A stretch of DNA of 64,000 nt from an uncultured Candidatus Saccharibacteria bacterium (GCA_964411375.1 CAYPKR010000002.1:205259-269258), one strand, 5' to 3'. Numbered from the stretch's first letter, positions 2,671 to 64,000 are shown. Numbers and translations are program-made. Notes: a model not told the origin generated them from the letters alone.

Positions 2671-2674
2671 TTAT

Positions 2675-20286: not shown

Positions 20287-20340
20287 ACGTATTTTTTAAT
20301 AATTACCTGACAATCTGATAAATTGGCACCTTCTTTACAG

Positions 20341-20391: not shown

Positions 20392-21046
20392 CCACAAATA
20401 CTGCTTCGACCACATATCGACGATCTTTACCGCCGAATGAATCACAGGTTGAGAGGACGAGACGCTTACCGTGTCCGGTCAAATCAACACGTACTTCACT
20501 TGCTGCCGCTTCAGTCACCGAGATAACTCGATAGACGTTTTCGACATTCTTTGACTGCACATGAATCAGGTCACCGTTCTCAAACTTTTTGATGTTGTTG
20601 AACGTCTTATAGAACTGATTATGGACAATCGGTACGACAGAAGAATGACCGAAGAGGAACATCGTTCCTGAATCTCCCATCAAACTTGAGCCTGGGTAGC
20701 GAACCGCACCTTTGAGGAGCGCAGCATCCAGAGCTTCAACATTTCGGCTTTCTGGGTTCAAAATCGGCATATCGAGACCGATCGTTGAGGCAACAATGCG
20801 AAGTGGTTCTTCGTTTGCTGAAACGGTTACCGACGGATTTCCACCCTTGTCAGTGAGGCTCGTTTTTGAGACTTCTGCATCAGCACGAAGACCTGCTTCG
20901 GGCACGATATCAAGGACAGAGAGGATCGCAAAGAGTGCGAAGAAGACCACAATCAAGCAAAAGATAAACGCAAGGCGCTTTTCTTCGATTTTTCCCGCAA
21001 CACGGGCAACCTTTATGCTGAATGGCTCCTTATGCATTGTGCTCAC
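20363..21046 (-). CDS. Sortase family transpeptidase
   Basis: An N-terminal TM segment, FLFGHSS (His), LVLSTCD (the TLXTC Cys) and a downstream Arg. Confidence 0.8.
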   Translation of the reverse strand: MSTMHKEPFSIKVARVAGKIEEKRLAFIFCLIVVFFALFAILSVLDIVPEAGLRADAEVSKTSLTDKGGNPSVTVSANEEPLRIVASTIGLDMPILNPESRNVEALDAALLKGAVRYPGSSLMGDSGTMFLFGHSSVVPIVHNQFYKTFNNIKKFENGDLIHVQSKNVENVYRVISVTEAAASEVRVDLTGHGKRLVLSTCDSFGGKDRRYVVEAVFVESYSLSNTP

Positions 21047-47023: not shown

Positions 47024-50000
47024 CTACGGAATACTATCGGGGGCAGTAATCCAACAGTTGAGACCGGCGCAGTTGCGTAATTGACCTAATCTTGTCGCTA
47101 GATCTGCTTGTACCGATGTATATGCCGGTGTTCCCGCTTTATTTAGAAGCTCATATGGATCAATCAGCAAGTCATATAATTCTTTCTGGTTGTTATCATG
47201 TTCAACATATGTGTATCGTGTCGTACGCACCGCATCAAATCCAGGAGTGCCTGGAATGAGTGGATCATAATCGAGCGTCCCGTCCATTCGTACTGCGGTG
47301 CGCCATGTCGGATCTGCACCTTCGAGGAGCGGTACCAGGGAGCGACCATCGAATGTGACTGTCTGGTGCGCATCTGCGATATCAACAATTGTTGGAGCGA
47401 TATCAACATCACTGACTAGTTTTGTATTGACGGCATGAACGACTCCTGGCCCTCGTACAACAAGGGGAAGCCGGATAGATTCTTCAAAGAACGACTCTTT
47501 ACCTGAAGCTATCCGATGCTCACCTGCATACCACCCGTTATCCGAAAGATACAGAATATATGTATTGCTGAGCTTGCCGATTGACTGCAGCTTTTGTATG
47601 AGGCTTTCGACACCATCGTCGACCGACATAAGAGAAGCGAGGCGCTTGCGATACTTTTGGGTAATTGCGGCAATTTGAACCGTAGTAAGGAGTGGTTGGT
47701 TTGAGGTGATAAATGCAGGCTTATCTGACATATCGGCCTCATTAAAATTAGGCAATCGCGGCAATGGTTCGCTTGAAAATGCGGCCATGTATCGCGGTGC
47801 GGGAATTGGATCGGTTGTTGGAGTGTTGGTTAAATCATCGTGAGGTGCCAAATAGGCCAGCTGTATATAGAATGGCGATGTGGTATTCCTTTGAGACTCG
47901 AGGAAATTCAATACCTTGGCAGTAAGTACGTCAGTCATGTACTCACTAGGATTTGACCCATAATTGCGTATAGTGCCGTTCTCATTAATTGCATAGTTGT
48001 AGTAGGAATGAATAAGGTGATCGCCTGAACGTGGCACGCCATTCCATTCATCCCAGCCAGGCGGTACGTGTGATGCAGGATAATCATCTGCACCTCCATA
48101 GAAGTTGAAATATTTCCCGTAAAACGCATTTGTATATCCCACATTTTTCAGCCATACCGGCAGGGCTTTACTCTCGCGGAATCCAGTTGCGAGTGAAGCA
48201 GGTGGTGGTGACTGCTTGGTTATGCCGTGGTTTTGGGCATACATTCCGGTAAGGAGTGTCGTGCGCGCTGGACAACAAAGCGAAAGATTGTCTATGTAGT
48301 TAGTGAATTGAACGCCTTGATCTACGAGCAAGGATTTAACCTTGGGCATTTTTGATAAGCTGGCATAGTCTTGGTCATCCGTTACGATCAGCACGATATT
48401 CGGCTTTGTAGTTGCTAAACCTTTTGTAAACACTGCTGAAGCGATCGCGCTTGGAGTAAGACCTGTCTTCCATGCTCCGACTTTTATGGTCTTAGTATCG
48501 GTTAGAGTAATGGGCGCCGTATAGACGGCACTTGCTTCGGTCGGGGTACTGCCATCGAGTGTATAGTGCATGGTTGCGTCAGCGGTTGTTACTGAAAGAG
48601 TAACGGTCTGCGAGGCGGTGAATGTCCCGCCTGCAGGAGATATTGTAGGGGTGGCCACAATAGTCGGCTCACCGGTTGTTCCGCCGACTGTACCACCAAC
48701 CGTTCCTCCGGTTGTTCCGGTAGTGAAGAATCCAGTCACGACGCCACCGCCGCCAATCGGATTAATGATCGCTTGGAGTTGCCAAAAGTTTGTTGCGCAA
48801 AAAGAGTCGCGGCAGCCGCATTTCCATGCGCCGCCGACAAAGGTACACGAGTATGCTGCAAAGAACGTATAAAAAGATGGCGAGCGAAGATCGGCATTTT
48901 CGATAGTGGTGTGCGCGCCGACAAGCAGCCAATTCCCTCCCGTTCCTGGAGCGGGAGTTCCGGTAAATGTAATTGGCACCCATGCGGCACCAGTCCATCT
49001 GAATCCATTTTTATAGACATATTTTTGGGTGGCGGTGTCGGGAGTCTCAAAACTAAATGTCGCATCTCCCGCTGTATTGCACGCAAAATTAAGCAGCGTT
49101 TCTTTCGCTCCACCGAATACGTTGTACGCGGCGCCATATCCCGACGGAATAGTAGCGGCGTTGGTATACCGTTCAGTGCATCCGTACGACGGAACAGTGA
49201 ATGTGGTTCCGACCGTAGCGCCGCCGGAAGTCACGCCAGTAGCAACCCCCCCCGTCGTCCCCACTCCCGTCCCCGTCGTAACAGTACCCGCAGTACCAAC
49301 GGTTCCATGTCCATCACCTCTCCACAGGGTTTTGTATACCGCGATAGGATCTTGCCCTGATTCGTTTGCCGGCCATGCGGAATAAATACTGCCGTCTCCT
49401 TGGTCGAAGTAATCTTCGTGATCAAGAATATCTTGGTTCGCATTAAAGAATGCGTAGGTGAAGCGGATGACGTCCGCCGGATGTGTGGAAGCGGCGGCGC
49501 CTTCGCGGCGCGGCGCCCATTCGGGAAATACCATTCGAACTCCTTGCGCTCTCGCGAATGCCACAATTTCGTTGAATCCCCAGAATCCTGCATTGCCTGC
49601 AAGGATTTGGTTCCAGTTGTTTCCTGGCGCTGTTGCTGATTCCCCCTGCACTCGCACCATCGAGCTGTCATGCCACGATGCGCCGACAAAATCGATTTGT
49701 TTCCCGATGGGGCCAGGAGGAAGCACCGTGATTCCGTTGATGATTCGAGTACCAGGGCTCCAACTGGCAACATTGTTTGGCCAGAGTTGTTCGTGGCGAA
49801 TGGTGCTGCCCCCACCACGACGATCGGAATTGATGAACTGGAGTTGTGGACGGAATGCGAAATAGTAATTTGGATATTGTCCGCGCTGATATTTGTATCC
49901 TTCTTTAAATACGCGGATCCATCTCGCCCATGCATATGGAAAATCCTGATACGTGAAATGCTTTCCGGTTGCGTCAGTATATGAGCCTTCAGGAGATTTG

Positions 50001-50623
50001 CCGTGCGTCTCGAGCGTAAATTCATAGAACCAGTCCATGGTCATTGGAAACGCCGGATCGCCGTCGCGCTGATCGAGGTATGCGAACTTTCGTCCGAGGA
50101 GAAAGAGGTATTTGTCCGCGTCCCCGTTTTTGATATCCCGATAGATTGTCGGGTTCGCGTATGTGGAGCCAGTCCATCGATTGCCGAGTGTTGAAGGAAT
50201 TGGTTCTGCCCAGTCGAGATGAATGATGCGCTTTCGGTGCACGGTTGCGGGATAGTCGCCCCAAATGTGGCGGAACCATCCTTCGTCCTGGAACACGCCG
50301 TGGAAAAGCGGCGGATCCGCGTTCCATGCTGCGGGAGTGCGGTTGAAATCGCGATCCGTTTCGGCTTCGCTGTCGGCGCCGCCAACATTCGGCCATGTGA
50401 CGACATCTCCCATTCCTTGGGTCACTGAATCTGGTTCGTGACCCATGAGATCGATGTAGTTCTGCATATGATCAGAGCTGCCGTTGATCCAGCTACCGGC
50501 ATTCCATGGCATGCCGCTTTTGCCGACGTGTCCAGAAAAGACAGCCGCGTATACTGGCTTTCCAATGATACCCGCAACAAAGACAAGGATGCCCAAAAGA
50601 AGCGGGATGGCGAAGAATTTCAT
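47024..50623 (-). CDS. Secreted multidomain protein: GH-like N-domain, shared 6-Cys module, Fn3/CHB_HEX_C-like domain, C-terminal sulfatase
   Basis: A signal peptide MKFFAIPLLLGILVFVAG. The sulfatase carries the formylglycine motif SLCCPARTTLLTG and DDQDY. The shared module matches CTERY...YGAAYNVF...WKCGCRDSFC. Confidence 0.8.
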   Translation of the reverse strand: MKFFAIPLLLGILVFVAGIIGKPVYAAVFSGHVGKSGMPWNAGSWINGSSDHMQNYIDLMGHEPDSVTQGMGDVVTWPNVGGADSEAETDRDFNRTPAAWNADPPLFHGVFQDEGWFRHIWGDYPATVHRKRIIHLDWAEPIPSTLGNRWTGSTYANPTIYRDIKNGDADKYLFLLGRKFAYLDQRDGDPAFPMTMDWFYEFTLETHGKSPEGSYTDATGKHFTYQDFPYAWARWIRVFKEGYKYQRGQYPNYYFAFRPQLQFINSDRRGGGSTIRHEQLWPNNVASWSPGTRIINGITVLPPGPIGKQIDFVGASWHDSSMVRVQGESATAPGNNWNQILAGNAGFWGFNEIVAFARAQGVRMVFPEWAPRREGAAASTHPADVIRFTYAFFNANQDILDHEDYFDQGDGSIYSAWPANESGQDPIAVYKTLWRGDGHGTVGTAGTVTTGTGVGTTGGVATGVTSGGATVGTTFTVPSYGCTERYTNAATIPSGYGAAYNVFGGAKETLLNFACNTAGDATFSFETPDTATQKYVYKNGFRWTGAAWVPITFTGTPAPGTGGNWLLVGAHTTIENADLRSPSFYTFFAAYSCTFVGGAWKCGCRDSFCATNFWQLQAIINPIGGGGVVTGFFTTGTTGGTVGGTVGGTTGEPTIVATPTISPAGGTFTASQTVTLSVTTADATMHYTLDGSTPTEASAVYTAPITLTDTKTIKVGAWKTGLTPSAIASAVFTKGLATTKPNIVLIVTDDQDYASLSKMPKVKSLLVDQGVQFTNYIDNLSLCCPARTTLLTGMYAQNHGITKQSPPPASLATGFRESKALPVWLKNVGYTNAFYGKYFNFYGGADDYPASHVPPGWDEWNGVPRSGDHLIHSYYNYAINENGTIRNYGSNPSEYMTDVLTAKVLNFLESQRNTTSPFYIQLAYLAPHDDLTNTPTTDPIPAPRYMAAFSSEPLPRLPNFNEADMSDKPAFITSNQPLLTTVQIAAITQKYRKRLASLMSVDDGVESLIQKLQSIGKLSNTYILYLSDNGWYAGEHRIASGKESFFEESIRLPLVVRGPGVVHAVNTKLVSDVDIAPTIVDIADAHQTVTFDGRSLVPLLEGADPTWRTAVRMDGTLDYDPLIPGTPGFDAVRTTRYTYVEHDNNQKELYDLLIDPYELLNKAGTPAYTSVQADLATRLGQLRNCAGLNCWITAPDSIP

Positions 50624-50681
50624 GCATATATATTGTACCGCCTAGTGGTTCGAGGCGGTGGGAGGTGGTGTGGATTTAATT
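49247..50681. repeat. Copy 1 of a perfect 1,435-bp direct repeat (copy 2 at 57697..59131)
   Basis: The antisense ORFs 49231..50025 and 57681..58475, and others, are identical (offset 8,450 bp). The repeat covers the 5' 1.4 kb of two paralogous genes plus ~58 bp upstream. Confidence 0.85.
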
Positions 50682-50700
50682 CATTCAGACTTAACGCTAT

Positions 50701-53700
50701 TTAAATGGAATTTGGTCCAACTTGACTCACATTGAGCTCAACGGCTGGTATCCATGTCTCCGCGGTAGTTGGAAATTCCTGCACATTCGTATAGTGACCC
50801 GGAATATAATTTACCGCGCCAACGTGCGCTTCGATGCGTCCGTCCTTCACTACCGGTCCCCCGCCATCGCCTTTCCCAATTATGATGGTGCCTCGATTCC
50901 CCGCCATCAACCAATTGATCGATTGTTCTGGAGTTTGTGAGACAGTGTCACCCGGATCGCGGGCAAGTACCTCCATACGATCCCCTTCAAAATTATTTCC
51001 AATTACTCGCTGATTGGCGCCTTGTCCAACAATTGCGCCAGTTGATTGCCTGATGAAATTGGAGATAACAATATTGTTCGAACCGTTTCTAAGAACAATG
51101 CCGCCTTTGACATTTTTGACAGTATTTCCGCGGATAATATTTCTTGAGGATTTAATCGATATGCAGTCATCAGTAAATAGGTTGTTGGTTACGAGATTAA
51201 GTTCAATGACCGCGAGCATCCCTTGCGCAGAGTTGGAATACGTTTGACCGACTTGTATACACTCTTCAAGATTGCCGCCAGGACCAGCTTGTCGGTCATG
51301 TACATAGTTGCGATCGACAAGAGTATTCCGTGCTCCGTCAGTTGTATTCGTATCAAAGCCGATTCCTTGGGTTGAATAATTGCCAATCTCATTCCGGTCA
51401 ATGCGGCAATATTCGCATGTCCTTGAAATGTTAATTGCATTACGGTCGGTAGTGTTAATAAATAGGTTTCTAGACACTCGATCATGCGTACCGGTTACGT
51501 TAATTCCTGTTCCGCCTTGAAATTTCATTCCTTCGAGAATAACGCAGGTACCGCCAACGGTGAATTCTCCCATAAATACTGGCGAAAGACGATTCAGCGC
51601 CCGTATCACAATTGGCTGCGATTTCGTTCCTGTACGATTAATGCTGAAATTGCCCAAATAGGTATTGTCTCCAACCAAAATCAAATCTCCTGCATTTGCT
51701 CCCAAAAGGGCTTGGGAGAGTTCAGTGGCATTATTGACGGTGATTGGAGCGCGCGGAGATGTTGGAATTATATCCACACACCCTGGTGTTTCCTCCGGAG
51801 GCCATGGATAACAATTCGATCCGGTACAGGCCGGCTCCGGTCCAGATGTGCCTCCTCCGGTAGTACCGCCAACAGTGCCTCCCCCTGGTGTTCCGCCACC
51901 GGTGCTGAAGAAAAATCCTCCGTTTGGATTTTGCGTTGCTTGGAGTTGCCAGAAATGGACTGTACAAAATGTGTCACGACAACCGCAGTTCCAACTGCTA
52001 TTGGCAAAGGTGCAAGTGTATGCGGCAAAAAAGGTGTACGCGGGAGATGGGCGAAGATCGGCGTTTCGAATGGTTGTTGTTGCTCCCATCCGAAGCCAGT
52101 TTCCTCCGCTTCCTGGAACAGGGATTCCTTCGAAGGTAAACGGCACCCACGAACCGCCATTCCATCGATAGCCGTTTTTGTAGACATATTTAGGGGTGGA
52201 AGTGTCCGGTGTATTTATTGAAAACGAAACATCGCTCCCCGGACCATCACAGCTGAGATTAAGGAGAAGTTCTTTTGCGCCGCTAAATACATTGTACGCG
52301 GCGCCATATTTGGCAGGAGTGATAGTGTTATTGTCAAAACGCTCGTGGCATGGCTCAAATCCAATCGATGCCGCAGATCCAACGCCCCCTGTAACCGTAC
52401 CTCCCGTCCCCGTTCCCCCAGTAGTCCCCGTGGTGCCAGTGCCAGTCGTAGCTGTTGTTCCCGTTCCTATCGGAGCACCTGTTCCGTTTATTTCGAGTAC
52501 GAGCAGATAATCTGGAATTTGAACATCCATTGTGGTGATTCCAGCATCGTTGGTAACGGTCTGTATTACATTTGCATTAAATGAAGGCTCGTACGTATGG
52601 ACAGCAGTAACTCTTGAATTAAAATGCACCGTTACCGCCTTCCGTGCCGGCTCTATGTCAGCTGGTCCGTTTGAACTACTCACCGCTTGCCATAAGACAA
52701 GATAAAAGACCCCGTTACGCTTTTGAAGCAATAGTTGCTGCACGTTAGCGGTGTCACCAGAAAGCGTGTAATCAAGCCCGCTTGTCGTAAATGGCGCGCC
52801 AGGATCTTTAAAGAGATTGATGTAATTTTTAATCGCGGTGAATTGTTGGCGCACAGAACCATCATGGTTTATGATGCCGAGTTCATCGGATTGTCCGTTG
52901 TCGACGAGTTGATAAATATATACGCGCGGTGAGTTATGGGTGAGATGCCATAAAAATTCACGCGGAAAATATTTTGCAGCCGCACGTTCTGAGACTGCAC
53001 GGTGACCGGGATCATCAGGAAATTTTCGATATCCGACTTCGGTTGCCCACACCGGCTTTGCGCTTCCATACCGGTTCAAATCAAGAGCGCGAACATCAGT
53101 GATTCCCCATCCGCCGCCGCCCGGGCCTTCAGGATACAGTCCGGCGGGATAGTCGTGCGAATTCCCGACATCCATGTAATTTGCCGCGTCAGTAAATGTG
53201 CTTTGAAAAATACCTGGCGAATTGCTGGTGTGTGCAAACGATGCCCCAAGATATGGAATATTTCTTGTTATTGCGTCCGCTTTTACGCGCGGATACATGT
53301 CTTTGATGTAATTGCGTTGATTGGTCTGCCATCCGGTATCATGAATGTCACGCTCGTTTGGAGGCTCAATCCCATCGACAACATTTATCGTCGCATTCAG
53401 ATCGCGAATAACCGCAAGGTCATCAGCTCCATGATACCCCTGATACAACAAGGTGATACCGTTGTTAGTGCGTAAATCTTTCCACTTTGCTCGAAGGGCG
53501 GTCGACGGAATGCCACCGCCGCCGTTGTCACGAATATGTCGAATACCGCTTTCAATCAATCGCGGCTTAACGATGTCGTCGTAGTGCATACCATAAATCG
53601 TATCGGTGTAATCGAGATGAACGTTCACTCCGACTTCGTCAGCGGCAAGATCAGACATTATTGCAGGAACCACCGCGCCAGAAACCTGCGGCGTGAGTAT

Positions 53701-53793
53701 TAATAATGCCCTGCCCCCGCTAAACCATTCGGTAACTCCTAGAAAACCAGCGACAAGGAATGTGGCAATGCCGAAAAAACGGAAGATCGTCAT
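50701..53793 (-). CDS. Secreted multidomain protein: GH-like TIM-barrel N-domain, shared 6-Cys module, C-terminal parallel beta-helix (lyase-like)
   Basis: A signal peptide. WATEVGY looks like a catalytic Glu. The shared module reads CHERF...YGAAYNVF...WNCGCRDTFC. PbH1-like repeats (NNFEG, GNTVKN, NNIVISN) form the beta-helix. Confidence 0.7.
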   Translation of the reverse strand: MTIFRFFGIATFLVAGFLGVTEWFSGGRALLILTPQVSGAVVPAIMSDLAADEVGVNVHLDYTDTIYGMHYDDIVKPRLIESGIRHIRDNGGGGIPSTALRAKWKDLRTNNGITLLYQGYHGADDLAVIRDLNATINVVDGIEPPNERDIHDTGWQTNQRNYIKDMYPRVKADAITRNIPYLGASFAHTSNSPGIFQSTFTDAANYMDVGNSHDYPAGLYPEGPGGGGWGITDVRALDLNRYGSAKPVWATEVGYRKFPDDPGHRAVSERAAAKYFPREFLWHLTHNSPRVYIYQLVDNGQSDELGIINHDGSVRQQFTAIKNYINLFKDPGAPFTTSGLDYTLSGDTANVQQLLLQKRNGVFYLVLWQAVSSSNGPADIEPARKAVTVHFNSRVTAVHTYEPSFNANVIQTVTNDAGITTMDVQIPDYLLVLEINGTGAPIGTGTTATTGTGTTGTTGGTGTGGTVTGGVGSAASIGFEPCHERFDNNTITPAKYGAAYNVFSGAKELLLNLSCDGPGSDVSFSINTPDTSTPKYVYKNGYRWNGGSWVPFTFEGIPVPGSGGNWLRMGATTTIRNADLRPSPAYTFFAAYTCTFANSSWNCGCRDTFCTVHFWQLQATQNPNGGFFFSTGGGTPGGGTVGGTTGGGTSGPEPACTGSNCYPWPPEETPGCVDIIPTSPRAPITVNNATELSQALLGANAGDLILVGDNTYLGNFSINRTGTKSQPIVIRALNRLSPVFMGEFTVGGTCVILEGMKFQGGTGINVTGTHDRVSRNLFINTTDRNAINISRTCEYCRIDRNEIGNYSTQGIGFDTNTTDGARNTLVDRNYVHDRQAGPGGNLEECIQVGQTYSNSAQGMLAVIELNLVTNNLFTDDCISIKSSRNIIRGNTVKNVKGGIVLRNGSNNIVISNFIRQSTGAIVGQGANQRVIGNNFEGDRMEVLARDPGDTVSQTPEQSINWLMAGNRGTIIIGKGDGGGPVVKDGRIEAHVGAVNYIPGHYTNVQEFPTTAETWIPAVELNVSQVGPNSI

Positions 53794-53846
53794 GATGTAT
53801 ATATTGTACCGTCGAGTCGCTTTGAATTAGCGAGAGTGGTGTGGAT

Positions 53847-56375
53847 TTACGGACAGAGGTCGTCCGCATCCCCATTTGGTCCGACGTTTCCCGGACCGAG
53901 ATTCAGTGTTGGAGCGGTAGCTGCGGGATTTACATTTTGAGTTGCGGGTACGGAACATCCCTCTGCTCCAACAGCGGCGTCAGAATTACCATTTAAGTCA
54001 ATTCCTTCCGGACAACGAGTAGGTTCGCGACGCGGATTAAATTCAAGATATCCAATACGGAGTTTGTCTGATGCGGTAGTAAATACATTTCCCCATATTT
54101 TGGTACGTACTGCATTCGCATGATTTGCTCCAGGAGGGACTTCGTCAGGAAGGCAATCTCCGAGAGAGAACGTACAGTCTCCCGATCCCGCCCAAAATCC
54201 TTGAATACTGCCTTGAAATACGTTGCTCACGAAGAAGTTGTCCGTGTCGAAACTAAAGGCTCCCACATTTTCAAAACGATTATTGAAAAACACGTTCCGC
54301 TGCCCATGTCGAACACCGGTACGATTTTCAGTACCTGCGACAACATTATTTTCGATAACGTTCTCAGTGGATTTCAAGTAGAATCCGTATTGCCGCTTGT
54401 CAGATGAATCGACGTAATTTTTTTCAATCAGCGACCGAGAAATTGATTCTCGCTGCTTGTTTACGAGTCCGAGATAGACATTGATGCCTCCTGATGAAGT
54501 CTGCGGATTGGTGACTCCGCCCCTAAAGAAATTGTGATCAATGCGATGATAGTACGGATTCGAAGTGCCATCCGCGATGTTGATCTGAATATCTTCCTTA
54601 GTATCGCTGGTGCCTGCGTCAAGAATATTTCGATCAATGCGTATATTTCGAGCGTCACTTGCGGTATCGATTATTTTCTCGCCCGGAGCAGAGAGGAAAT
54701 TATTTCCCGTAACACGAACATTGTTTCCATTCACCTGTAGTGTAACTCCAACAAATGTAAATCCTTTGATGACAACGTAATCTCCATTGATGGTGAGCGT
54801 GCCTCCGCTAAATGTCCCTCCTGGAACAAATACCAGCGGATTTGCTGCGGTACCGCTTTGGTTGATCACTCGAGTAGCAGGAGAAAGTGTTTGAGCTCCA
54901 GTCATCGAGTAACATATTTTTGCGGCATTCGCTTTAACGATTCCATACCATGTCGGCGGCGTAAATACGCCTCCAGTCCATTCAGATCCTCCGCCAGTGC
55001 CGCCTGTCGTTCCGGCCGTTGTTCCGCCGACTGTACCACCAACCGTTCCCCCAGTGGTTGCGCCGCTGGTACCACCGCCACCGAAGAAAATATCACTACC
55101 GATTGGATTTCGAATTGCTTGAATTTGCCATCCATTGAATATGCACATAGCGTCGCGGCAGCCGCACTTCCATGCGCCGCCAGAAAAAGTACATGAGTAC
55201 GCCGCAAAAAAAGTAAACACATTTGCTGGGCGCAAATCAGTATTGTTAATACGCGCCGACGCGCCCATCAACAGCCAATTTCCTCCCGAGTCCGGAGCAG
55301 AAGTTCCGGTAAAAGTTATCGGCACCCATGCGGCACCATTCCATCTGAAGCCAGTTTTGTACACATACTTTTGATCGCTTGCGTCATCGCTGTTGACTGA
55401 AAACGTTGCATTCCCGACTGAGTCGCAATTAAAGCGCAGTAACAATTCATGAGTAGTGTTGAATATATTGAAAGCGGCACCGTATCCTGCGGGCGGAACA
55501 ACCGAACTCGTATACCTTTCATTACAGGTAAGCGGCGGGGCGCCGACAGTGGCAAACGTTGCAGTCGTTCCGCCAACCGTTCCTGTTGTACCGACCGTAG
55601 TTCCCGTCGTTACTGTTCCTCCAGTTGTTGTAGTCGTTGTGCTTGCTTGCAGTGCAGTTGCGATTGCAAGTGCGATTTTTTTTGCACCTTGCTCGTTGGT
55701 ATGGAGCCGATCAGCAAAATCCGGATCGGTTGCGCTAGGCATAGTGCCTGGGAACACTTGATCTAATCGCACAAGAATATCGTATTTGGAAGTATCGCTT
55801 AGGATGAGCGTATTGAGCGTTCTGCGCTTCAAATCAATTGCATCCGCTTCTGATTGCGGCGGATTGCTGAACGGATAGAAGGGATGAATGGTGAAAGCGA
55901 CCACCGTAAACCCGTCGGCATGCGCCATCGCCCACAGCGTTTTAAGATCAGTGTATGTTTCCTCCGCGGTACGAGCGGGACCTCCCACTCCGCTTCCTTG
56001 AATGTCGTTGATTCCTCCATAGATGATGTAGTACGCCTTCTTATCTGCTGCTGGCTTATGCGGACGCGCTTCGGTTGGATATTCGGTGAGCATTTGCTTC
56101 ACCTGTTCGCCGGCTGCAGCAATGTTGAAGATGCTTGCGGAAGAATACCAGGTAATATATTGACTGATATAATTCACCCAATCGCCTGGCCTTCGAGGAT
56201 CTGTCGGCAAACCAACAGATCCATTTGAAAGGCTATCTCCTTCAATGACTACAATATCCGCTCTGCCTCCGGGCGCTGTTTGCGCATGTAAATGAATAGA
56301 TACGCCAATGAAAAATACCGCGATGAAGAGAAGGGTTACTCGAGGCAGTATGGTACGTATGTTGTATGTCGACAT
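53847..56375 (-). CDS. Secreted multidomain protein: SGNH/GDSL esterase N-domain, shared 6-Cys module, C-terminal beta-helix
   Basis: A signal peptide and VVIEGDSLSNGS (the GDSL block). The shared module reads CNERY...YGAAFNIF...WKCGCRDAMC. It abuts the upstream gene within ~5 nt and is probably cotranscribed with it. Confidence 0.7.
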   Translation of the reverse strand: MSTYNIRTILPRVTLLFIAVFFIGVSIHLHAQTAPGGRADIVVIEGDSLSNGSVGLPTDPRRPGDWVNYISQYITWYSSASIFNIAAAGEQVKQMLTEYPTEARPHKPAADKKAYYIIYGGINDIQGSGVGGPARTAEETYTDLKTLWAMAHADGFTVVAFTIHPFYPFSNPPQSEADAIDLKRRTLNTLILSDTSKYDILVRLDQVFPGTMPSATDPDFADRLHTNEQGAKKIALAIATALQASTTTTTTGGTVTTGTTVGTTGTVGGTTATFATVGAPPLTCNERYTSSVVPPAGYGAAFNIFNTTHELLLRFNCDSVGNATFSVNSDDASDQKYVYKTGFRWNGAAWVPITFTGTSAPDSGGNWLLMGASARINNTDLRPANVFTFFAAYSCTFSGGAWKCGCRDAMCIFNGWQIQAIRNPIGSDIFFGGGGTSGATTGGTVGGTVGGTTAGTTGGTGGGSEWTGGVFTPPTWYGIVKANAAKICYSMTGAQTLSPATRVINQSGTAANPLVFVPGGTFSGGTLTINGDYVVIKGFTFVGVTLQVNGNNVRVTGNNFLSAPGEKIIDTASDARNIRIDRNILDAGTSDTKEDIQINIADGTSNPYYHRIDHNFFRGGVTNPQTSSGGINVYLGLVNKQRESISRSLIEKNYVDSSDKRQYGFYLKSTENVIENNVVAGTENRTGVRHGQRNVFFNNRFENVGAFSFDTDNFFVSNVFQGSIQGFWAGSGDCTFSLGDCLPDEVPPGANHANAVRTKIWGNVFTTASDKLRIGYLEFNPRREPTRCPEGIDLNGNSDAAVGAEGCSVPATQNVNPAATAPTLNLGPGNVGPNGDADDLCP

Positions 56376-56379
56376 ATGT

Positions 56380-59073
56380 TTAATCGGCGCAAGCAGTGAG
56401 GCTGATCCCCAGTGACGATGCGGCAAAATTTTTCGATGCAATCCACCAGCCCAATGTTTTATCCCACGGCTTTCTTGTGTGATCGCTCATGGAAGTCAGT
56501 GTTCCCCACACCGCAACCCCTTGAGTAAGGGGACGGAGATGTTGTAATTGATAGTCCCAAAATGTCTGCGAGACATACGGCACCGAATCAATCTCAAACT
56601 GCGGCCAAATGTATGGAATTACTGTCTTTCCGGGACCGAGTGCTTTGTAGGAGTTGATTCGACCAGTCGCCATTGTATTCCATAATTCTGGATTGGATCC
56701 CATATCAAGATCTGCTGCATAGAGCGATGGCTGAAGAAAATCTTGCGAATTGATGAACGCTTGTGCTGCTCCCGATCTGCTGCTAATTTCTCGTGTCATG
56801 AATGGTGCGCCGTAATAGCCAAACTGGGTACGAGTATCTCCTCGCGCGCGCACTGCAGTACGAAGACCATTTATTGCTTGCACGTATTTTGCAGCGTCTG
56901 CATCGCTAAAACCGATTCGATCTGCATCACGCCAAATCTCGATATCGATAGATACATAATCAAGGTTCGCCGCAACAATATTTGCTGCGGTAGCATCAAC
57001 ACGAGCCTGATTATAATTATTATTTCCATCAAGCAATTCCGAAGGATTCACAATATCCAATCCTCCAGACAGACCGCAATTCTTTAAGTTCGGCTCACCG
57101 GTAAATGCAATAGTGTCATACATTTTCCATGTTCCCGGAGGAGGCGCCGTTGTTCCTCCCGTTGCAGTGGTGCCAGTCACCGTTCCGCCAGTTACTACCA
57201 CGCCGGTAGTACCGCCAATTGCAGAGCGCATCGCTTGAATTTGCCAGAAGTGAACGCCACAAAAAGAATCGCGGCAGCCGCATTTCCATTCAGAATTTGA
57301 AAATGTACAAGTGTATGCGACAAAGTATGAAAATCGATCTTGCGGAAGTAGATCACTGTACGGAATAGTCACGTGTGCTCCCATCAAAAGCCAATCGGGT
57401 GACCCCGGCGCAGCAGTTCCTTCAAACGTGAATGGCACCCATGAACCGCCGTTCCACCTGAACCCAGTTTTGGAAACATATTTCTGGGTGGCGGTGTCTG
57501 GAGTATTTACTGAGAGTGTGAGATTGCCATTTGAATCACAAACCGTGCGAATTAATAATTCACGATATCCGCTAAATACATTGAATGCTGCACCGTAATT
57601 ATTTGGAATGCCAGCAGCGTTGCTATAGCGCTCGGTACAACCTCCGAAAAAAGGAAGCGTTGTTCCCGAACCTCCAACCCCTACTCCAACTGTGGTTCCC
57701 CCCGTCGTCCCCACTCCCGTCCCCGTCGTAACAGTACCCGCAGTACCAACGGTTCCATGTCCATCACCTCTCCACAGGGTTTTGTATACCGCGATAGGAT
57801 CTTGCCCTGATTCGTTTGCCGGCCATGCGGAATAAATACTGCCGTCTCCTTGGTCGAAGTAATCTTCGTGATCAAGAATATCTTGGTTCGCATTAAAGAA
57901 TGCGTAGGTGAAGCGGATGACGTCCGCCGGATGTGTGGAAGCGGCGGCGCCTTCGCGGCGCGGCGCCCATTCGGGAAATACCATTCGAACTCCTTGCGCT
58001 CTCGCGAATGCCACAATTTCGTTGAATCCCCAGAATCCTGCATTGCCTGCAAGGATTTGGTTCCAGTTGTTTCCTGGCGCTGTTGCTGATTCCCCCTGCA
58101 CTCGCACCATCGAGCTGTCATGCCACGATGCGCCGACAAAATCGATTTGTTTCCCGATGGGGCCAGGAGGAAGCACCGTGATTCCGTTGATGATTCGAGT
58201 ACCAGGGCTCCAACTGGCAACATTGTTTGGCCAGAGTTGTTCGTGGCGAATGGTGCTGCCCCCACCACGACGATCGGAATTGATGAACTGGAGTTGTGGA
58301 CGGAATGCGAAATAGTAATTTGGATATTGTCCGCGCTGATATTTGTATCCTTCTTTAAATACGCGGATCCATCTCGCCCATGCATATGGAAAATCCTGAT
58401 ACGTGAAATGCTTTCCGGTTGCGTCAGTATATGAGCCTTCAGGAGATTTGCCGTGCGTCTCGAGCGTAAATTCATAGAACCAGTCCATGGTCATTGGAAA
58501 CGCCGGATCGCCGTCGCGCTGATCGAGGTATGCGAACTTTCGTCCGAGGAGAAAGAGGTATTTGTCCGCGTCCCCGTTTTTGATATCCCGATAGATTGTC
58601 GGGTTCGCGTATGTGGAGCCAGTCCATCGATTGCCGAGTGTTGAAGGAATTGGTTCTGCCCAGTCGAGATGAATGATGCGCTTTCGGTGCACGGTTGCGG
58701 GATAGTCGCCCCAAATGTGGCGGAACCATCCTTCGTCCTGGAACACGCCGTGGAAAAGCGGCGGATCCGCGTTCCATGCTGCGGGAGTGCGGTTGAAATC
58801 GCGATCCGTTTCGGCTTCGCTGTCGGCGCCGCCAACATTCGGCCATGTGACGACATCTCCCATTCCTTGGGTCACTGAATCTGGTTCGTGACCCATGAGA
58901 TCGATGTAGTTCTGCATATGATCAGAGCTGCCGTTGATCCAGCTACCGGCATTCCATGGCATGCCGCTTTTGCCGACGTGTCCAGAAAAGACAGCCGCGT
59001 ATACTGGCTTTCCAATGATACCCGCAACAAAGACAAGGATGCCCAAAAGAAGCGGGATGGCGAAGAATTTCAT
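56380..59073 (-). CDS. Secreted multidomain protein: GH-like N-domain (identical to the one in 47024..50623), shared 6-Cys module, C-terminal TIM-barrel-like domain
   Basis: The N-terminal 465 aa are identical to those of the 1199-aa paralog. The shared module reads CTERY...YGAAFNVF...WKCGCRDSFC. Confidence 0.7.
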   Translation of the reverse strand: MKFFAIPLLLGILVFVAGIIGKPVYAAVFSGHVGKSGMPWNAGSWINGSSDHMQNYIDLMGHEPDSVTQGMGDVVTWPNVGGADSEAETDRDFNRTPAAWNADPPLFHGVFQDEGWFRHIWGDYPATVHRKRIIHLDWAEPIPSTLGNRWTGSTYANPTIYRDIKNGDADKYLFLLGRKFAYLDQRDGDPAFPMTMDWFYEFTLETHGKSPEGSYTDATGKHFTYQDFPYAWARWIRVFKEGYKYQRGQYPNYYFAFRPQLQFINSDRRGGGSTIRHEQLWPNNVASWSPGTRIINGITVLPPGPIGKQIDFVGASWHDSSMVRVQGESATAPGNNWNQILAGNAGFWGFNEIVAFARAQGVRMVFPEWAPRREGAAASTHPADVIRFTYAFFNANQDILDHEDYFDQGDGSIYSAWPANESGQDPIAVYKTLWRGDGHGTVGTAGTVTTGTGVGTTGGTTVGVGVGGSGTTLPFFGGCTERYSNAAGIPNNYGAAFNVFSGYRELLIRTVCDSNGNLTLSVNTPDTATQKYVSKTGFRWNGGSWVPFTFEGTAAPGSPDWLLMGAHVTIPYSDLLPQDRFSYFVAYTCTFSNSEWKCGCRDSFCGVHFWQIQAMRSAIGGTTGVVVTGGTVTGTTATGGTTAPPPGTWKMYDTIAFTGEPNLKNCGLSGGLDIVNPSELLDGNNNYNQARVDATAANIVAANLDYVSIDIEIWRDADRIGFSDADAAKYVQAINGLRTAVRARGDTRTQFGYYGAPFMTREISSRSGAAQAFINSQDFLQPSLYAADLDMGSNPELWNTMATGRINSYKALGPGKTVIPYIWPQFEIDSVPYVSQTFWDYQLQHLRPLTQGVAVWGTLTSMSDHTRKPWDKTLGWWIASKNFAASSLGISLTACAD

Positions 59074-59125
59074 GCATATATATTGTACCGCCTAGTGGTT
59101 CGAGGCGGTGGGAGGTGGTGTGGAT

Positions 59126-61105
59126 TTAATTTTGAATTACCTCCCTATTCGCCGGAACGCCCGTTCCCTCCACCGTACAGCTCCCTATTTGCTCTCCTGG
59201 ACTAAAGGAAACCACTGAGACAGTCTTCCCTTGGAATCCTTCGAAACTATTACTTACAACACTGACCTTGCGAATGTTCTTAATAAGAACACCAATGAGA
59301 CCGCCTCCGCTAAACGTGTTTTTGGTGATCATTGCTTCATCGGAAGTTATATTTTGGCAGTCATTGGTATTGGTCGATGAAATTGGTTCTTGTCCTGGCT
59401 CAATGCAATTTCGTCCACATGAAATAAATGTATTGTTTTCAATAAGCGCATATCCGACGCCTTCCTTTAGGGAGATAGCGTGATTAAAGCCTCCGTTGAA
59501 AGTATTGTTTGCGATGTAAATGGACTTCGCATTGTAGATGCGGAACCCGTAATCCATCGTGTAATTTTTTGAGCCATTGCTGAGCGTACTTTCGATTCTG
59601 TTAGAATCGCTGTACACATCATTAGCTACAAGTTGGATGTTCACTTGATTAGCAGGATCTCCTAAGTTAACAACAAGACCGCTGCTGACAAGATTTCGAA
59701 ATGACGAGTTCTGTACTCGAATGTTTTTTGAATCTTCAAGAGTTAGGTAGCCTCCCGTCCATGCGAGACCATCCAAAACTATTCCATCCGAATTCGTAAT
59801 ATTCGGAACTCCAGTACTTCCCCCATTGAAATTACACTGCCTTACTGCAATACATTTGAGGGTTAATACGCCTCCCGTGTGACCGTTTATTCGCAGCATC
59901 CCGTAATTTCCTGGACTAAGATTGAGAATTCGACAACCGGCTCCAAGATTTGAACTAAGGGATGATGGCGTCACCGACACTGGAGAACCGCACGGCGTAA
60001 TCTCAGGGAAACCTGGAGGAGCTGGAAGTTCCGCGCCATCAGTTGTGGTGTCGGAAGCAGTACCCGCAGTGGCTGTTCCGCCCAAAGCACTCATCGAACA
60101 GGCCGGAGATCCTTTCAAAGTAGAACGCACCAAAAATCCTTCAGCTGCCGTGCCATACTTAAAGTTGCGGAATATCGCTGCTTCCACAAAGTATGCGACG
60201 CCCCATCCATCTGGTCGATCCGTTATTGGGACTGGATCAAATGAAAGCGGCTGCCAGACAAGCTCTCCGGTGACTCCATTGCGGGTGGCCATCTGAATAA
60301 ATTTATCTTTGTAGCTTACCGTGAGCGTTATGCCGCTCCACGTGACCGTAATCGGACTATCGATGCCAAGATCGGCAAGAGTATTGGTTGATGCCAAAAT
60401 CCGATTTGCTTCCTCCATCGAAAGCCCGGACGAATCCCCTGTTCGTTGCTGGATTATTAATGCGAGATCGGAAGGAGTAACGCCAAGTTTTGTCACCGAA
60501 TCTGTCGGTAGAAGAGTGATGGTCGTAAATGGGACCCATTCATCTCCTGAAGGACCGCATCCTGGACCTGGAGTAAGGACGAGTGGTGAGCGAAACGCTT
60601 GAAGTTGCCACAAACTAACTCCGCACACTGCGTTGCGGCAGCCGCACTTCCATGCGCCATTTACAAAAGTACAGGTGTAGCCGGCAAGAAAATTGTACAT
60701 GCCTGCTGGTCGAAACACGCTCTTTGCGATTGTGGTGCTTGCGACTGCTTTGAGCCACGCGCCGCCCGTTCCAGGAACCGGTACGCCGTGCATGATGACT
60801 TCGACCCAATGAGTTCCGTCCCATCGATATGCGGTGCGGTAGACGTATTGCGGATTGGTCGTATCCTCCGACCCTTCCATAAACAAAGCATCGTTTGTTG
60901 GACAAGACGTATTGAGAATTAATTCTCGAATTGTAGAAAATACATTATATGAGGTCGCATATCCTGGTGGGGTCAGCATAGTATTGTCGTACCGCGGTTC
61001 ACAACTTACTTGAGCAACAACCGAGGGTGTATGCGAAGAAAACAAAATATATCCAATGCCAAGACATAGGAGTGAAATAAGAAATACGCGCACCGACAAT
61101 TTCAT
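59126..61105 (-). CDS. Secreted protein: N-terminal shared 6-Cys module followed by a parallel beta-helix domain
   Basis: A signal peptide. The shared module reads CEPRY...YATSYNVF...WKCGCRNAVC. PbH1-like repeats (NNTF.GG, NSF.G) form the beta-helix. Confidence 0.65.
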   Translation of the reverse strand: MKLSVRVFLISLLCLGIGYILFSSHTPSVVAQVSCEPRYDNTMLTPPGYATSYNVFSTIRELILNTSCPTNDALFMEGSEDTTNPQYVYRTAYRWDGTHWVEVIMHGVPVPGTGGAWLKAVASTTIAKSVFRPAGMYNFLAGYTCTFVNGAWKCGCRNAVCGVSLWQLQAFRSPLVLTPGPGCGPSGDEWVPFTTITLLPTDSVTKLGVTPSDLALIIQQRTGDSSGLSMEEANRILASTNTLADLGIDSPITVTWSGITLTVSYKDKFIQMATRNGVTGELVWQPLSFDPVPITDRPDGWGVAYFVEAAIFRNFKYGTAAEGFLVRSTLKGSPACSMSALGGTATAGTASDTTTDGAELPAPPGFPEITPCGSPVSVTPSSLSSNLGAGCRILNLSPGNYGMLRINGHTGGVLTLKCIAVRQCNFNGGSTGVPNITNSDGIVLDGLAWTGGYLTLEDSKNIRVQNSSFRNLVSSGLVVNLGDPANQVNIQLVANDVYSDSNRIESTLSNGSKNYTMDYGFRIYNAKSIYIANNTFNGGFNHAISLKEGVGYALIENNTFISCGRNCIEPGQEPISSTNTNDCQNITSDEAMITKNTFSGGGLIGVLIKNIRKVSVVSNSFEGFQGKTVSVVSFSPGEQIGSCTVEGTGVPANREVIQN

Positions 61106-61179
61106 ATTTCATTCATTGTAGCTCTTTTTAAGAGTATGTTCTGGAGGAGTATGGGGATTTCGCCACACCAACACCTCGA

Positions 61180-62622
61180 CTATAGACCAAGAGATTTGAG
61201 CGCCGCAAACCATTGATCGGCGATGAACGCAGCTCCAGCCGCATTTGGATGGAGATCATCCGTAAAATAGGAGTTCTTATCGAAATTCGTGAACATATCT
61301 GCAGTGATAACCGGTGAGTCAGTCGTTGAGGTGCTTGATGCGAGTGCACCGAGTTTGTCATTGAGTTCCATGATCAGTGCATCTGGGATAATGCGAGCCG
61401 GCATAATCTTGGCGAGAACAATCTTTACTCGTGGATTCTTTGCGCGCAAAATTTGGATGATACTCGTATCGGAATCAATTACTTCGTCCGGCGTTTTCGA
61501 TCCTTGATCAGGAACGGTCGTTACGAGATCGTTTGTTCCAATATGAAGAAGCACTATGTCCGGTGTATACGCTTGAAGCCATGAAGGAAGCGCATCGCGA
61601 ATCTCCCACGATTCCCATCCGGCATGTCCTTCTTGGTCAGGATCCCACGGTACACCAGTATCTCTGACGGTACCAACGTTATCAAATGGAATACCTGCGG
61701 CATTTAATTTTTGAATCAAATATTTTCGATAGGAACGAAAGCTGGTTGGAAGATCTGCACCTGCACGCGTTATCGAATCTCCGAGTGGAAGAATTTTGGG
61801 TCCGGCGACTGGAGCTGATGGAATTGCTTCTGCACGCACCGCTTGTATTTCCGCTGTTGAGAGGGCGCGATTGTAAATACGTACATCATCGAGCGTACCG
61901 CCAAAGGCACCGTCCGTATCTCCAGCACTATCCCCTAAATATAATTTAAATGTATTGGTAGTGATGGTGGTCGTTGGAATCGTCTTGCTGGCGACTAATT
62001 TCCCATCGATATAGAGCGACATTGTTTTACCATTTCGTACACCTGCAATATGTCGCCAAACGCCGACCGGAAGCGATGTCGTCGCACCTTCAATCGTATA
62101 GATTTTGTTGTTTACCTTTACGCGGAATTGCGGCACTTCAGCACCCGAAACATCGGATCGATCGACAATCCCATATGACACATCTGAATATTTAAGTCCT
62201 TTCTGGAGGAGCTTTGCATTTTTTGATGTGGTAGCTGTTGCCATGCGGGCATCGCGCTTAGCCCAGAGTGTCACGGTGATATTAGTTTTGATATTCAAGC
62301 TGGTCGCATTTGCGATTTCAATACGATCATCGACGCCGTCAAAGTGGACACCGAGTGCTTGTTCACCTTGAACCCAAGTAGAACCGCCGAGCAATTTCCC
62401 TGTTTCCCTTTTACCCGATGTGTCAGCGGTTGTTGTCCCGATCCCTTCATCCATAATCCATTTGCCGACCAGGCCGGTGGTGGTTGAGGTTGCTACTTGT
62501 CCGCTTACATTTAATGGTTCGACAGAAAGGGGTACGAACACAAGGATAAACGCAATGAGCGATCCACCAACTGCAATGAGTTGTGTATCACTCATTTTTG
62601 AAAAGAAAGTATTTGATTGCAT
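61180..62622 (-). CDS. Secreted LamG-like (concanavalin/Laminin_G_3) domain fused to an SGNH hydrolase
   Basis: An N-terminal TM/signal segment and a LamG-like beta-sandwich (LDDVRIYNRALSTAEIQ). SGNH blocks follow: LGDSIT, GTND, DDLHPN. Confidence 0.7.
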   Translation of the reverse strand: MQSNTFFSKMSDTQLIAVGGSLIAFILVFVPLSVEPLNVSGQVATSTTTGLVGKWIMDEGIGTTTADTSGKRETGKLLGGSTWVQGEQALGVHFDGVDDRIEIANATSLNIKTNITVTLWAKRDARMATATTSKNAKLLQKGLKYSDVSYGIVDRSDVSGAEVPQFRVKVNNKIYTIEGATTSLPVGVWRHIAGVRNGKTMSLYIDGKLVASKTIPTTTITTNTFKLYLGDSAGDTDGAFGGTLDDVRIYNRALSTAEIQAVRAEAIPSAPVAGPKILPLGDSITRAGADLPTSFRSYRKYLIQKLNAAGIPFDNVGTVRDTGVPWDPDQEGHAGWESWEIRDALPSWLQAYTPDIVLLHIGTNDLVTTVPDQGSKTPDEVIDSDTSIIQILRAKNPRVKIVLAKIMPARIIPDALIMELNDKLGALASSTSTTDSPVITADMFTNFDKNSYFTDDLHPNAAGAAFIADQWFAALKSLGL

Positions 62623-62694
62623 GCAACTAGTATACCTTTCTATTGAATGAAAGGTTCAAAAAAATATTGTGCGGGTGGGGATTATGCAAATATT

Positions 62695-63999
62695 TTATCT
62701 ACCGAGATCGTAGAGTTGTTTGACCTCAGCGGCAGAAAGCGCACGACCGTATACACGTAGATCATCGAGTCGTCCGCCCCAGAAACCTGATGCTGCATCC
62801 CATCCAATATCAGCGGCGGTTGGAGATGTGTCTGATGTTCCGCTCGCAGCGAATGTTGCATTAAAAGTACCGACCAGTACTCCATTCATGTACATGTACA
62901 TGATGTCATTAGGATAGTCGATAACGCCAACAGCATGTAACCAATCACTGTTACCTGCTATGGTAGGTGAAGAGATCGTAAACACATTGTTGGATTCTCC
63001 ATCTCCTGCACGAACAATTAAGCGTAATCGGTCGGAACTATCGACTGCAAATGCAACGCGCGCCGTGCCGGTACCGGTAAAAATGGTAATAATTGGATCA
63101 AGGTTTGCCGTCCCTTCTCGTTTGATCCACGCAGAGACTGTTGCGCCAGGAACATTCCGAAGAAGGTTTGTTGATGCCCCAAGTACTATTTCGTCATCAA
63201 CACCGTTCATCAATATTGCCTGACCAATTCGTCCTGTCGCCGTCGTTACCGTCTGATTTACCCAATCACCATTGTTCCCAAGCGACCCTCGATCACGAAT
63301 TTCAGCGGATGAGAATGCGCTGTTTGTATTAATCGCATTACCATCAAACGTCCAATGTCCTTGAAGTCCTTTCTGCAAATCAGGAATATTGTTTAGTGTC
63401 GTATTTATTTTTGTCGTGCCACCGAGTTGATACAGTCTTTTTATTTCATCACCTGAGAGGACGCGGTTGTACATTCGCACATCGTCAATACCTCCGGAAA
63501 ATTGTCCTGCGTTGCAGGTGTTATTGGTGCATCCAATTCCTTGAAAACTTTCTGTGCCAACGTAATCCCCCAGTGTATCTGCGGCAGGAGTACCACTGAC
63601 TACGCCATCTATGTAACATGTTTTTGTCACCCCATCATGGGTACAGGTAATTAAACTCCACTTTAAAGTGGGGACGGTGCCGAAGCTGTCGTTCTGCGAT
63701 GAAGTCCCATCAGCGGTAACAAATTGCAAAGTGGGAGGAGACAACGTCTGGTCTAGTCGTATCCAATATTGCGCCAAGAAGTCGTTGTTGCTTCCATTTT
63801 GTCCTCGTTTGAATATGGTAGCTTTTCCGGCACCGCCCGTGATGTCATCTGGGTATATCCATGCGCTGATAGTGTAGTTCGAATTTAAATCGAGCGCAGA
63901 GGATACTGCAAGTCTCACAAAATCATTCGATCCGTCAAAATAAAGCGCCTGCCCTATGTCTCCTTTCATATAGGCACTCGACGTGGACATATTTCTCAT
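62695..63999 (-). CDS. Protein with three LamG-like (Laminin_G_3) repeats (5' end probably beyond window)
   Basis: Repeated ...DDVRMYNRVLSGDEIKRLYQLGG and ...LDDLRVYGRALSAAEVKQLYDLGR. The first Met coincides with the window edge. Confidence 0.6.
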   Translation of the reverse strand: MRNMSTSSAYMKGDIGQALYFDGSNDFVRLAVSSALDLNSNYTISAWIYPDDITGGAGKATIFKRGQNGSNNDFLAQYWIRLDQTLSPPTLQFVTADGTSSQNDSFGTVPTLKWSLITCTHDGVTKTCYIDGVVSGTPAADTLGDYVGTESFQGIGCTNNTCNAGQFSGGIDDVRMYNRVLSGDEIKRLYQLGGTTKINTTLNNIPDLQKGLQGHWTFDGNAINTNSAFSSAEIRDRGSLGNNGDWVNQTVTTATGRIGQAILMNGVDDEIVLGASTNLLRNVPGATVSAWIKREGTANLDPIITIFTGTGTARVAFAVDSSDRLRLIVRAGDGESNNVFTISSPTIAGNSDWLHAVGVIDYPNDIMYMYMNGVLVGTFNATFAASGTSDTSPTAADIGWDAASGFWGGRLDDLRVYGRALSAAEVKQLYDLGR

Positions 64000-64000
64000 T

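Follow-up and report, generated by a model that had tools for sequence, protein, structure and literature searches.

The stretch of DNA analysed here, 64,000 nucleotides (nt) from an uncultured Candidatus Saccharibacteria bacterium (GCA_964411375.1 CAYPKR010000002.1:205259-269258; hereafter the window), contains at 47024-64000 an island of genes encoding large secreted proteins. Open reading frame (ORF) calling identified seven long, co-oriented minus-strand ORFs in this island, separated by intergenic gaps of about 50-80 nt. Five of the seven (p1-p5, spanning 47024-61105) each encode one copy of a module of 136-138 amino acids (aa) that runs from its first Cys to the motif ‘WQ[LI]QA’ and has six invariant Cys. 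An earlier reading of the sequence without any database search (the sequence-only reading) had described a six-Cys module of about 140 aa shared by five of the island proteins, and the alignment of the five copies matches the consensus string that it gave.

All island features described below are on the minus strand. The p1 protein (47024-50623; 1199 aa) comprises, in order, a signal peptide, a barrel resembling glycoside hydrolase family 26 (GH26-like), a Gly/Thr linker, module copy 1 (48770-49180; residues 482-618), a CHB_HEX_C domain and an S1 sulfatase. It is followed by p2 (50701-53793; 1030 aa), with a signal or anchor segment, an N-terminal domain of about 410 aa, module copy 2 (51937-52350; residues 482-619) and a beta-helix resembling polysaccharide lyase family 6 (PL6-like), and by p3 (53847-56375; 842 aa counted from Met23), with a signal peptide, an SGNH/GDSL esterase, module copy 3 (55116-55526; residues 306-442 of the 864-aa ORF) and a beta-helix. 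With its listed TTG start the p3 ORF reaches 56441 (864 aa) and would run into the end of p4; a start at Met23 (ATG, 56375) gives p3 a normal signal peptide, agrees with the 842-aa database entry P0023 and is most likely the correct one. The remaining module genes are p4 (56380-59073; 897 aa), encoding a signal peptide, a GH26-like barrel, module copy 4 (57232-57639; residues 479-614) and a C-terminal domain of 257 aa, and p5 (59126-61105; 659 aa), encoding a signal peptide, module copy 5 (60596-61003; residues 35-170), a middle region with no assigned domain and a right-handed beta-helix. As the sequence-only reading had noted, the position of the module varies, being central in p1-p4 and N-terminal in p5, and the flanking linkers are rich in Gly and Thr, and also in Val.

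The last two island genes belong to the same array. The p6 protein (61180-62622; 480 aa) has an N-terminal hydrophobic segment, a LamG domain and an SGNH esterase and is without the module; p7 (62695-64000) is a LamG-repeat protein cut by the window end, with no module in its visible part. In an identical Logan contig, L028, which also carries the same p5 gene, p7 (positions 2-2068) is at least 688 aa long with several LamG repeats, its 5' end being cut there too, and probably represents a large surface protein made of LamG repeats. Signal peptides had been attributed to all seven proteins, and this stands for p1-p6, all of which have N-terminal hydrophobic segments (counted from Met23 in p3); the N-terminus of p7 lies beyond the window end. 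The sequences of p1-p5 contain no LPXTG motif, and sortase anchoring of the island proteins was rejected on that ground. Elsewhere in the window (18112-21046, minus strand; 21812-22906, plus strand), a sortase gene adjoins a gene for a 724-aa secreted protein without a Pfam match, with a CARDB-domain protein encoded nearby. The GC content of 48001-62000 is 0.49-0.52, compared with 0.44-0.47 in most 2-kb bins of the remaining window, and Gly/Thr/Ala-rich linkers may account for part of this elevation. Promoter and terminator scans returned counts below random expectation.

The five module copies are 44-60% identical to copy 1 in amino acid sequence, with 36 of 157 alignment columns invariant, the six Cys among them; copy 5 is the most divergent (38-46% identical to the other copies). 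Every copy matches the hidden Markov model of the family with an E value between 1e-52 and 1e-56. Because the copies are just 62-76% alike at the DNA level, they are old paralogues rather than assembly duplicates. Across 180 family members, whose median identity over the module is about 36%, the six Cys are 98-100% conserved, and W70, W85, W119, W133, G122, D125 and Q136 (alignment numbering), in the motifs ‘WKCGCRD’ and ‘WQxQ’, are near-invariant.

That the module is not any named domain had been supposed from the sequence, and the libraries searched bear this out. Pfam, even at E ≤ 10, returned chance-level matches alone, far below curated cut-offs; NCBIfam returned no family over the module; a PDB sequence profile search returned no match at E ≤ 10; and in 84 diverse family members no Pfam family covered the module. 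Literature searches found nothing relevant on the module motif, nor on sulfatase and lyase arsenals in Saccharibacteria or the Candidate Phyla Radiation (CPR). A word-indexed search of 5.8 billion clusters recovered just 20 relatives of the module, at most 40% identical. A full HMMER scan of 1.84 billion representatives (50% identity clusters), for which the query was a 19-sequence profile of the module, recovered 1438 proteins at E ≤ 1e-3, a number that falls to 528 at E ≤ 1e-30. Given these 1438 matches and the lack of any match in Pfam, NCBIfam or the PDB, the module is a real and sizeable family without a name in the searched libraries.

The AlphaFold2 model of the module, with a mean predicted local distance difference test score (pLDDT) of 90.9, is a compact all-beta sandwich. 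Its best structural matches are weak and include the glycan-binding sandwiches of carbohydrate-binding module (CBM) families 56 and 21 (CBM56, CBM21) and of beta-GRP/CBM39, beside generic FN3 and Ig domains. The module is accordingly modelled as an extracellular beta-sandwich of about 137 aa, which its six invariant Cys are predicted to stabilise through disulfides. With regard to the CAZy concept of a CBM, it is a discrete domain (compact in the model, and standing alone after the signal peptide in 35 of 162 family proteins) that is fused to carbohydrate-active catalytic domains in the window proteins and in homologues. It is not a type I dockerin, being 137 aa long and all-beta, with no Pfam dockerin match. 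At 2621-4533 (plus strand), the window also encodes a DsbD_TM/CcdA-type membrane protein followed by a Redoxin/thioredoxin-like protein, a thiol-disulfide exchange pair that may matter for the folding of many extracellular Cys-rich domains.

The sulfatase, GDSL/SGNH, beta-helix and LamG domains named in the sequence-only reading were all recovered by Pfam: Chondroitinase_B/beta-helix families in p2, p3 and p5, GDSL in p3 and p6, and LamG in p6 and p7, the beta-helix of p5 (PF13229, 2.5e-5) falling just under its cutoff. The formylglycine-type sulfatase of p1 (47075-48403) has both Pfam and PDB relatives. The protein matches Sulfatase, SGSH_C and CHB_HEX_C (PF00884 at 2e-42, PF16347 and PF13290), with 146 bits for PF00884 against a cutoff of 25, and its C-terminal part combines PF00884 with the C/S-x-P-x-R motif of S1 formylglycine-dependent sulfatases. 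The enzyme is of the Cys type, its CxPxR motif LCCPARTTLLTG being read in the sequence together with ‘IVTDDQD’, and its closest solved relatives are a GlcNAc-6-sulfatase (5g2v) and a mucin-desulfating sulfatase (7p24), both at E ~1e-36. No sulfatase-maturating enzyme, either formylglycine-generating enzyme (FGE) or anaerobic sulfatase-maturating enzyme (anSME), was found in the 30 other ORFs scanned of the 64-kb window. The C-terminal part of p2 (PF14592 at 2.2e-14, 53.8 bits against a cutoff of 24; PDB PL6 matches 6qps, 7o79 and 1dbg) resembles PL6 alginate lyases and chondroitinase B and, as judged by these matches, appears to be of the PL6 type. The p3 protein matches PF13472, PF00657 and PF14592. 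The SGNH/GDSL family assignment is borne out by the block I motif, which reads ‘IEGDSLS’ in the N-terminal part of p3 and ‘PLGDSIT’ in the C-terminal part of p6.

Of the TIM barrels resembling glycoside hydrolases that had been proposed, one could be confirmed, namely the N-terminal domain common to p1 and p4 (in p1, residues 27-460 at 49244-50545). It is a (beta/alpha)8 barrel with a conserved Glu after strand 4 and another in strand 7, as in clan GH-A. With no Pfam match at E ≤ 10, and hence none to the GH26 model PF02156, and with a ‘faint’ precomputed GH26 match on a protein of a related contig (L029) that carries the same type of domain, we file it as GH26-like, a tiny divergent family, and not as a member of GH26. 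The other proposed barrels had no Pfam or PDB match. The p2 N-domain (52459-53691; about 410 aa) matched neither library, nor did it match the GH26-like family in profile-profile comparison; a 53%-identical counterpart is fused to a sulfatase in L029. The p4 C-domain (56383-57153; 257 aa) likewise had no Pfam or PDB sequence match. With a sulfatase close to GlcNAc-6- and mucin-desulfating sulfatases and a PL6-like p2, the enzymes together fit a putative substrate that is an acidic polysaccharide bearing sulfate and/or acetyl groups, which might stem from a host, a biofilm matrix or the diet; this agrees with the sulfated or acetylated glycan suggested earlier.

The sequence-only reading did not describe three things: that the family comprises more than 1400 clusters, that p1 and p4 share an exact repeat, and that domains are reshuffled among close relatives. 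The repeat is a direct one of 1434 nt, with copy A at 49248-50681 in p1 and copy B at 57698-59131 in p4. Each copy takes in 58 nt of upstream sequence together with the coding sequence for the signal peptide, the GH26-like domain and the first part of the linker, such that the first 459 aa of p4 are identical to those of p1, and the repeat ends in the linker, just before the module. The separately assembled contig L028 is 100% identical to window 59102-64000 and stops exactly 30 nt inside copy B. Such a break is the de Bruijn graph branch expected at a true repeat, and an assembly artefact was rejected for this reason, with the proviso that L028 may derive from the same reads as the metagenome-assembled genome (MAG). 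The repeat indicates that a duplication or gene conversion took place very recently.

An island of this kind stands beside GAPDH in three related genomes, with different domain combinations in each: the window, the Logan DRR274965 contig L029 (GAPDH 94% and TktN 91% identical at the aa level) and L001, a 622-kb contig of an uncultured Saccharibacteria MAG. In L029 (1-14570), six island genes, including one for a PG_binding_1 protein, lie beside GAPDH. One of them, g3, encodes the p2-type N-domain, the module, CHB_HEX and a sulfatase; in two, the GH26-like domain follows the module and forms the C-terminus; one consists of signal peptide, module and FN3; and one, which is cut, encodes a second sulfatase. 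When p1 is compared with g3, aa identity is 87% in the sulfatase (with a ratio of nonsynonymous to synonymous substitution rates, dN/dS, of 0.06), 79% in CHB_HEX and 69% in the module, and the N-domains are unrelated. This shift in identity, together with the end of the p1/p4 repeat, suggests that catalytic domains have been exchanged at the linker before the module, presumably by recombination. In L001 (1-1916), the gene next to GAPDH encodes a module and a GH26-like domain and is cut by the contig end, which is consistent with the island being a repeat-rich assembly breakpoint. The island presents an unusually clear case of recent domain shuffling in a reduced genome. That its genes might be pseudogenes, a possibility raised in the sequence-only reading, was rejected in view of the long intact ORFs, the identical independent contig and the low dN/dS of the sulfatase; they are under purifying selection.

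The flank of the island (39-47 kb) encodes GAPDH, RpiB, Rpe, a split transketolase, PfkB and a beta-lactamase-like protein, and is collinear with the end of L001. Amino acid identities between the two are 83% for GAPDH, 77% for TktN, 74% for TktC and 74% for PfkB, the other three of the seven shared proteins being 48-56% identical. This collinearity places the window in a relative of this Saccharibacteria MAG with a reduced CPR genome, in line with the minimal look of the genome that had been remarked on earlier. At 9798-10715 (minus strand), NusB and NUDIX domains are joined in a single ORF, an unusual fusion.

A profile search had been proposed as a way to follow the spread of the module, and its 1438 clusters are complemented by a pattern scan of one genome per species, which located 27 module loci in CPR genomes and in MAGs labelled Bdellovibrionales. 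The two peptide patterns searched for were derived from the window copies, and the sample is biased accordingly; taxonomy follows the record titles. Seven of the 27 loci are in Saccharibacteria, one in Giovannonibacteria, one in Peregrinibacteria and eight in Moraniibacteriota, seven of the latter within one complete 1.05-Mb genome (CP064994); the remainder are in MAGs labelled Bdellovibrionales (eight), Deltaproteobacteria (one) and ‘bacterium’ (two). Module genes also occur in tandem elsewhere, as triplets (L006, L010) or pairs (L002, L005, L008, L012). One of the seven copies in CP064994 has an in-frame stop (L019, 10157-10159), either a pseudogene or a sequencing error. The module of the Peregrinibacteria-labelled MAG (L018) is 92-93% identical to the copies of a Bdellovibrionales-labelled MAG (L014, L016, L017), a likeness that points either to recent transfer between phyla or to one MAG having been mis-binned or mislabelled.

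In a set of 162 family proteins, 77 carry the module at the N-terminus, 39 at the C-terminus and 11 internally, and in the other 35 it stands by itself behind a signal peptide; no protein has two copies. A hydrophobic N-terminal leader is present in 114 of the 144 family proteins with a complete N-terminus. Its partners are also varied, and the idea of a shuffled module holds well beyond the island. Annotated enzymatic partners are beta-helix/PL6, GH26, GH5, PL14/PL20-type lyases, apiosidase-like domains, a carbohydrate esterase family 4 (CE4) deacetylase, sulfatase and BD-FAE; binding and other partners are CBM6, CBM60, malectin, LamG, TIG and FN3. Those with Pfam matches are mainly polysaccharide-active or polysaccharide-binding domains, and a few are directed at the cell wall (M23, PG_binding_1). 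A module copy resembles the other copies of its own genome much more closely than those found elsewhere: the window copies are 38-62% identical to one another and at most 42% identical to copies from other genomes, identity among four Moraniibacteriota copies is 89-99%, and copies in one Bdellovibrionales-labelled MAG are 94-99% identical.

From the predicted fold of the family, its extracellular context, partners, architectures, distribution and shuffling, we favour, with about even confidence, the reading that the module is of a new, CBM-like kind with a targeting role and that, together with its linkers, it doubles as a hub for recombination. The module itself would be non-catalytic and would keep the catalytic domains joined to it on the surface of a polymer. 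This polymer would most likely be an acidic polysaccharide, sulfated and/or acetylated, that belongs to a matrix or to the envelope of a partner cell. With a catalytic domain on either side, joined by flexible Gly/Thr linkers, or with a single such neighbour, the module could direct several activities onto one substrate. The conserved module and the low-complexity linkers would at the same time form a tract of homology in which paralogues recombine, and the differing catalytic combinations of relatives could be explained by this. Several observations weigh against this reading. Many partner regions have no recognisable domain, such that ‘glycan-active’ describes an annotated minority; 35 of the 162 proteins are a signal peptide and the module alone, which is unusual for CBMs, although short contigs may have yielded mere fragments of some of these genes; and the likeness of copies within a genome fits a lineage-specific self structure or partner protein equally well. 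A bolder version, which we consider unlikely, makes the module a host- or prey-surface recognition domain of ultra-small epibionts and predatory bacteria, aiming rapidly recombining cassettes of enzymes that degrade envelope or matrix at the partner, with the GAPDH-adjacent island as a diversity-generating locus; through the hub of module and linkers, Saccharibacteria could then bring catalytic domains into new pairings whenever the glycans of the host change.

The within-genome likeness just mentioned, seen across unrelated enzymes, is also what would be expected if the module bound the envelope of its own producer (peptidoglycan, a secondary wall polymer or an S-layer) and thereby kept the enzymes on a tiny epibiont, much as SLH or cell-wall-binding repeats do with another fold. 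Such retention would suit the absence from p1-p5 of LPXTG or any other recognisable anchor, though the window encodes a sortase, as well as the single copy per protein, the existence of standalone copies and the occasional wall-directed partners (PG_binding_1, M23, CE4 deacetylase). Recombination in tandem arrays also yields within-genome likeness, however, as with CBM3 in Caldicellulosiruptor; the window copies, diverged to 38-62%, are loose for one shared self-ligand; the module has no known wall-binding motif; and a spread over CPR and Bdellovibrionales-labelled MAGs would require a ligand common to very different envelopes. We regard self-surface retention as possible but doubtful. The same pattern, one copy per enzyme, on many different enzymes per genome, with copies alike within the genome, could alternatively indicate docking or oligomerisation, in which the module assembles enzymes into a complex or onto a scaffold or pilus by a logic like that of cohesin and dockerin. 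Ig/FN3-like folds are common at protein-protein interfaces, and the LamG-repeat surface proteins p6 and p7 are adjacent. However, a candidate scaffold with repeated receptor domains turned up neither in the window nor in related loci, and the module has no likeness to dockerin or cohesin in sequence or fold, making this explanation improbable.

The module might also have no ligand at all and be a passive spacer, a disulfide-locked Ig-like domain that separates or stabilises its catalytic neighbours. FN3/Ig-like spacers are frequent in modular extracellular enzymes, and generic FN3 domains are among the best structural matches. Spacers are nevertheless rarely the sole domain of a secreted protein, as the module is in 35 of 162 cases, and are rarely restricted to exactly one copy; the many non-Cys residues (W, Y, D and Q; ‘YGAAYNV’, ‘WKCGCRD’ and ‘WQLQ’) conserved in 180 members would likewise be rare for a spacer, to which we give little credence. 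As for a secretion or sorting signal recognised by an export or attachment machinery, in the manner of the C-terminal domains of the type IX secretion system (T9SS), the module is usually at the extreme C-terminus in Moraniibacteriota, Giovannonibacteria and Bdellovibrionales-labelled MAGs, where it ends in a conserved WQxQ(G/A/F)xx. Over the family as a whole, though, 77 of 162 proteins have it at the N-terminus and 11 have it internally, the window copies are all N-terminal or internal, and the proteins already have N-terminal signal peptides. This position independence largely refutes a sorting signal, which was rejected as a very remote prospect.

If the reading as a CBM-like targeting module is true, the accessory modules of extracellular glycan-degrading enzymes would gain an undescribed family (1438 or more clusters at 50% identity), a candidate new CBM family whose distinctive sandwich is held by three disulfides. 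The family has been seen so far mainly in CPR and in MAGs labelled Bdellovibrionales (predatory-type), bacteria whose attachment to and feeding on partners or matrices are little understood, and the module offers a concrete handle on substrate or host targeting in Saccharibacteria-type bacteria. A reduced Saccharibacteria genome here devotes about 17 kb to an arsenal of sulfatase, lyase, esterase and GH26-like enzymes, which relatives appear to recombine at the module linkers. The island also points to two further domains of catalytic size, the p2 N-domain and the p4 C-domain.

Parts of this system have counterparts among known ones. Like the small beta-sandwiches of CBM56, CBM21, the CBM39/beta-GRP N-domain and FN3/Ig, the module is predicted to be an all-beta sandwich in the range of about 90-140 residues appended to glycan-active enzymes, whereas its three conserved disulfides and its YGAAYNV, WKCGCRD and WQLQ motifs have no counterpart in them. 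As in type I dockerins, SLH domains and T9SS C-terminal domains, a common module is found on unrelated secreted enzymes, with copies alike within a genome; unlike in those systems, its position is not fixed, its fold and sequence are unrelated to theirs and no cognate receptor or machinery was identified. The co-location of an S1 sulfatase with a PL6-type lyase and esterases recalls the polysaccharide utilisation loci of Bacteroidota for glycosaminoglycans and mucin, but the island is without SusC/SusD, regulator or transporter, and its activities are fused around a shared module.

The closest known system is the glucan degradation locus of Caldicellulosiruptor, in which enzymes of the form GH-CBM3n-GH are encoded in tandem and catalytic combinations vary between species (PMC7142884). 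In both, large secreted enzymes are encoded by co-oriented tandem genes, and two catalytic domains flank a shared non-catalytic module joined by low-complexity linkers; tandem genes with a catalytic-module-catalytic plan and combinations that vary among relatives are found in p1-p4, L029 and L001. The differences are that the module described here is related to CBM3 neither in sequence nor closely in structure, and its binding is presumed; that the linkers are rich in Gly, Thr and Val instead of Pro and Thr; that there is one module per protein instead of one to three; and that the enzymes are a sulfatase and PL6, SGNH and GH26-like enzymes in a reduced Saccharibacteria genome, not cellulases. 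In kind, then, the island belongs with modular secreted carbohydrate-active enzymes that share an accessory module; what is new is the module family itself, absent from the searched libraries and marked by its three-disulfide signature.

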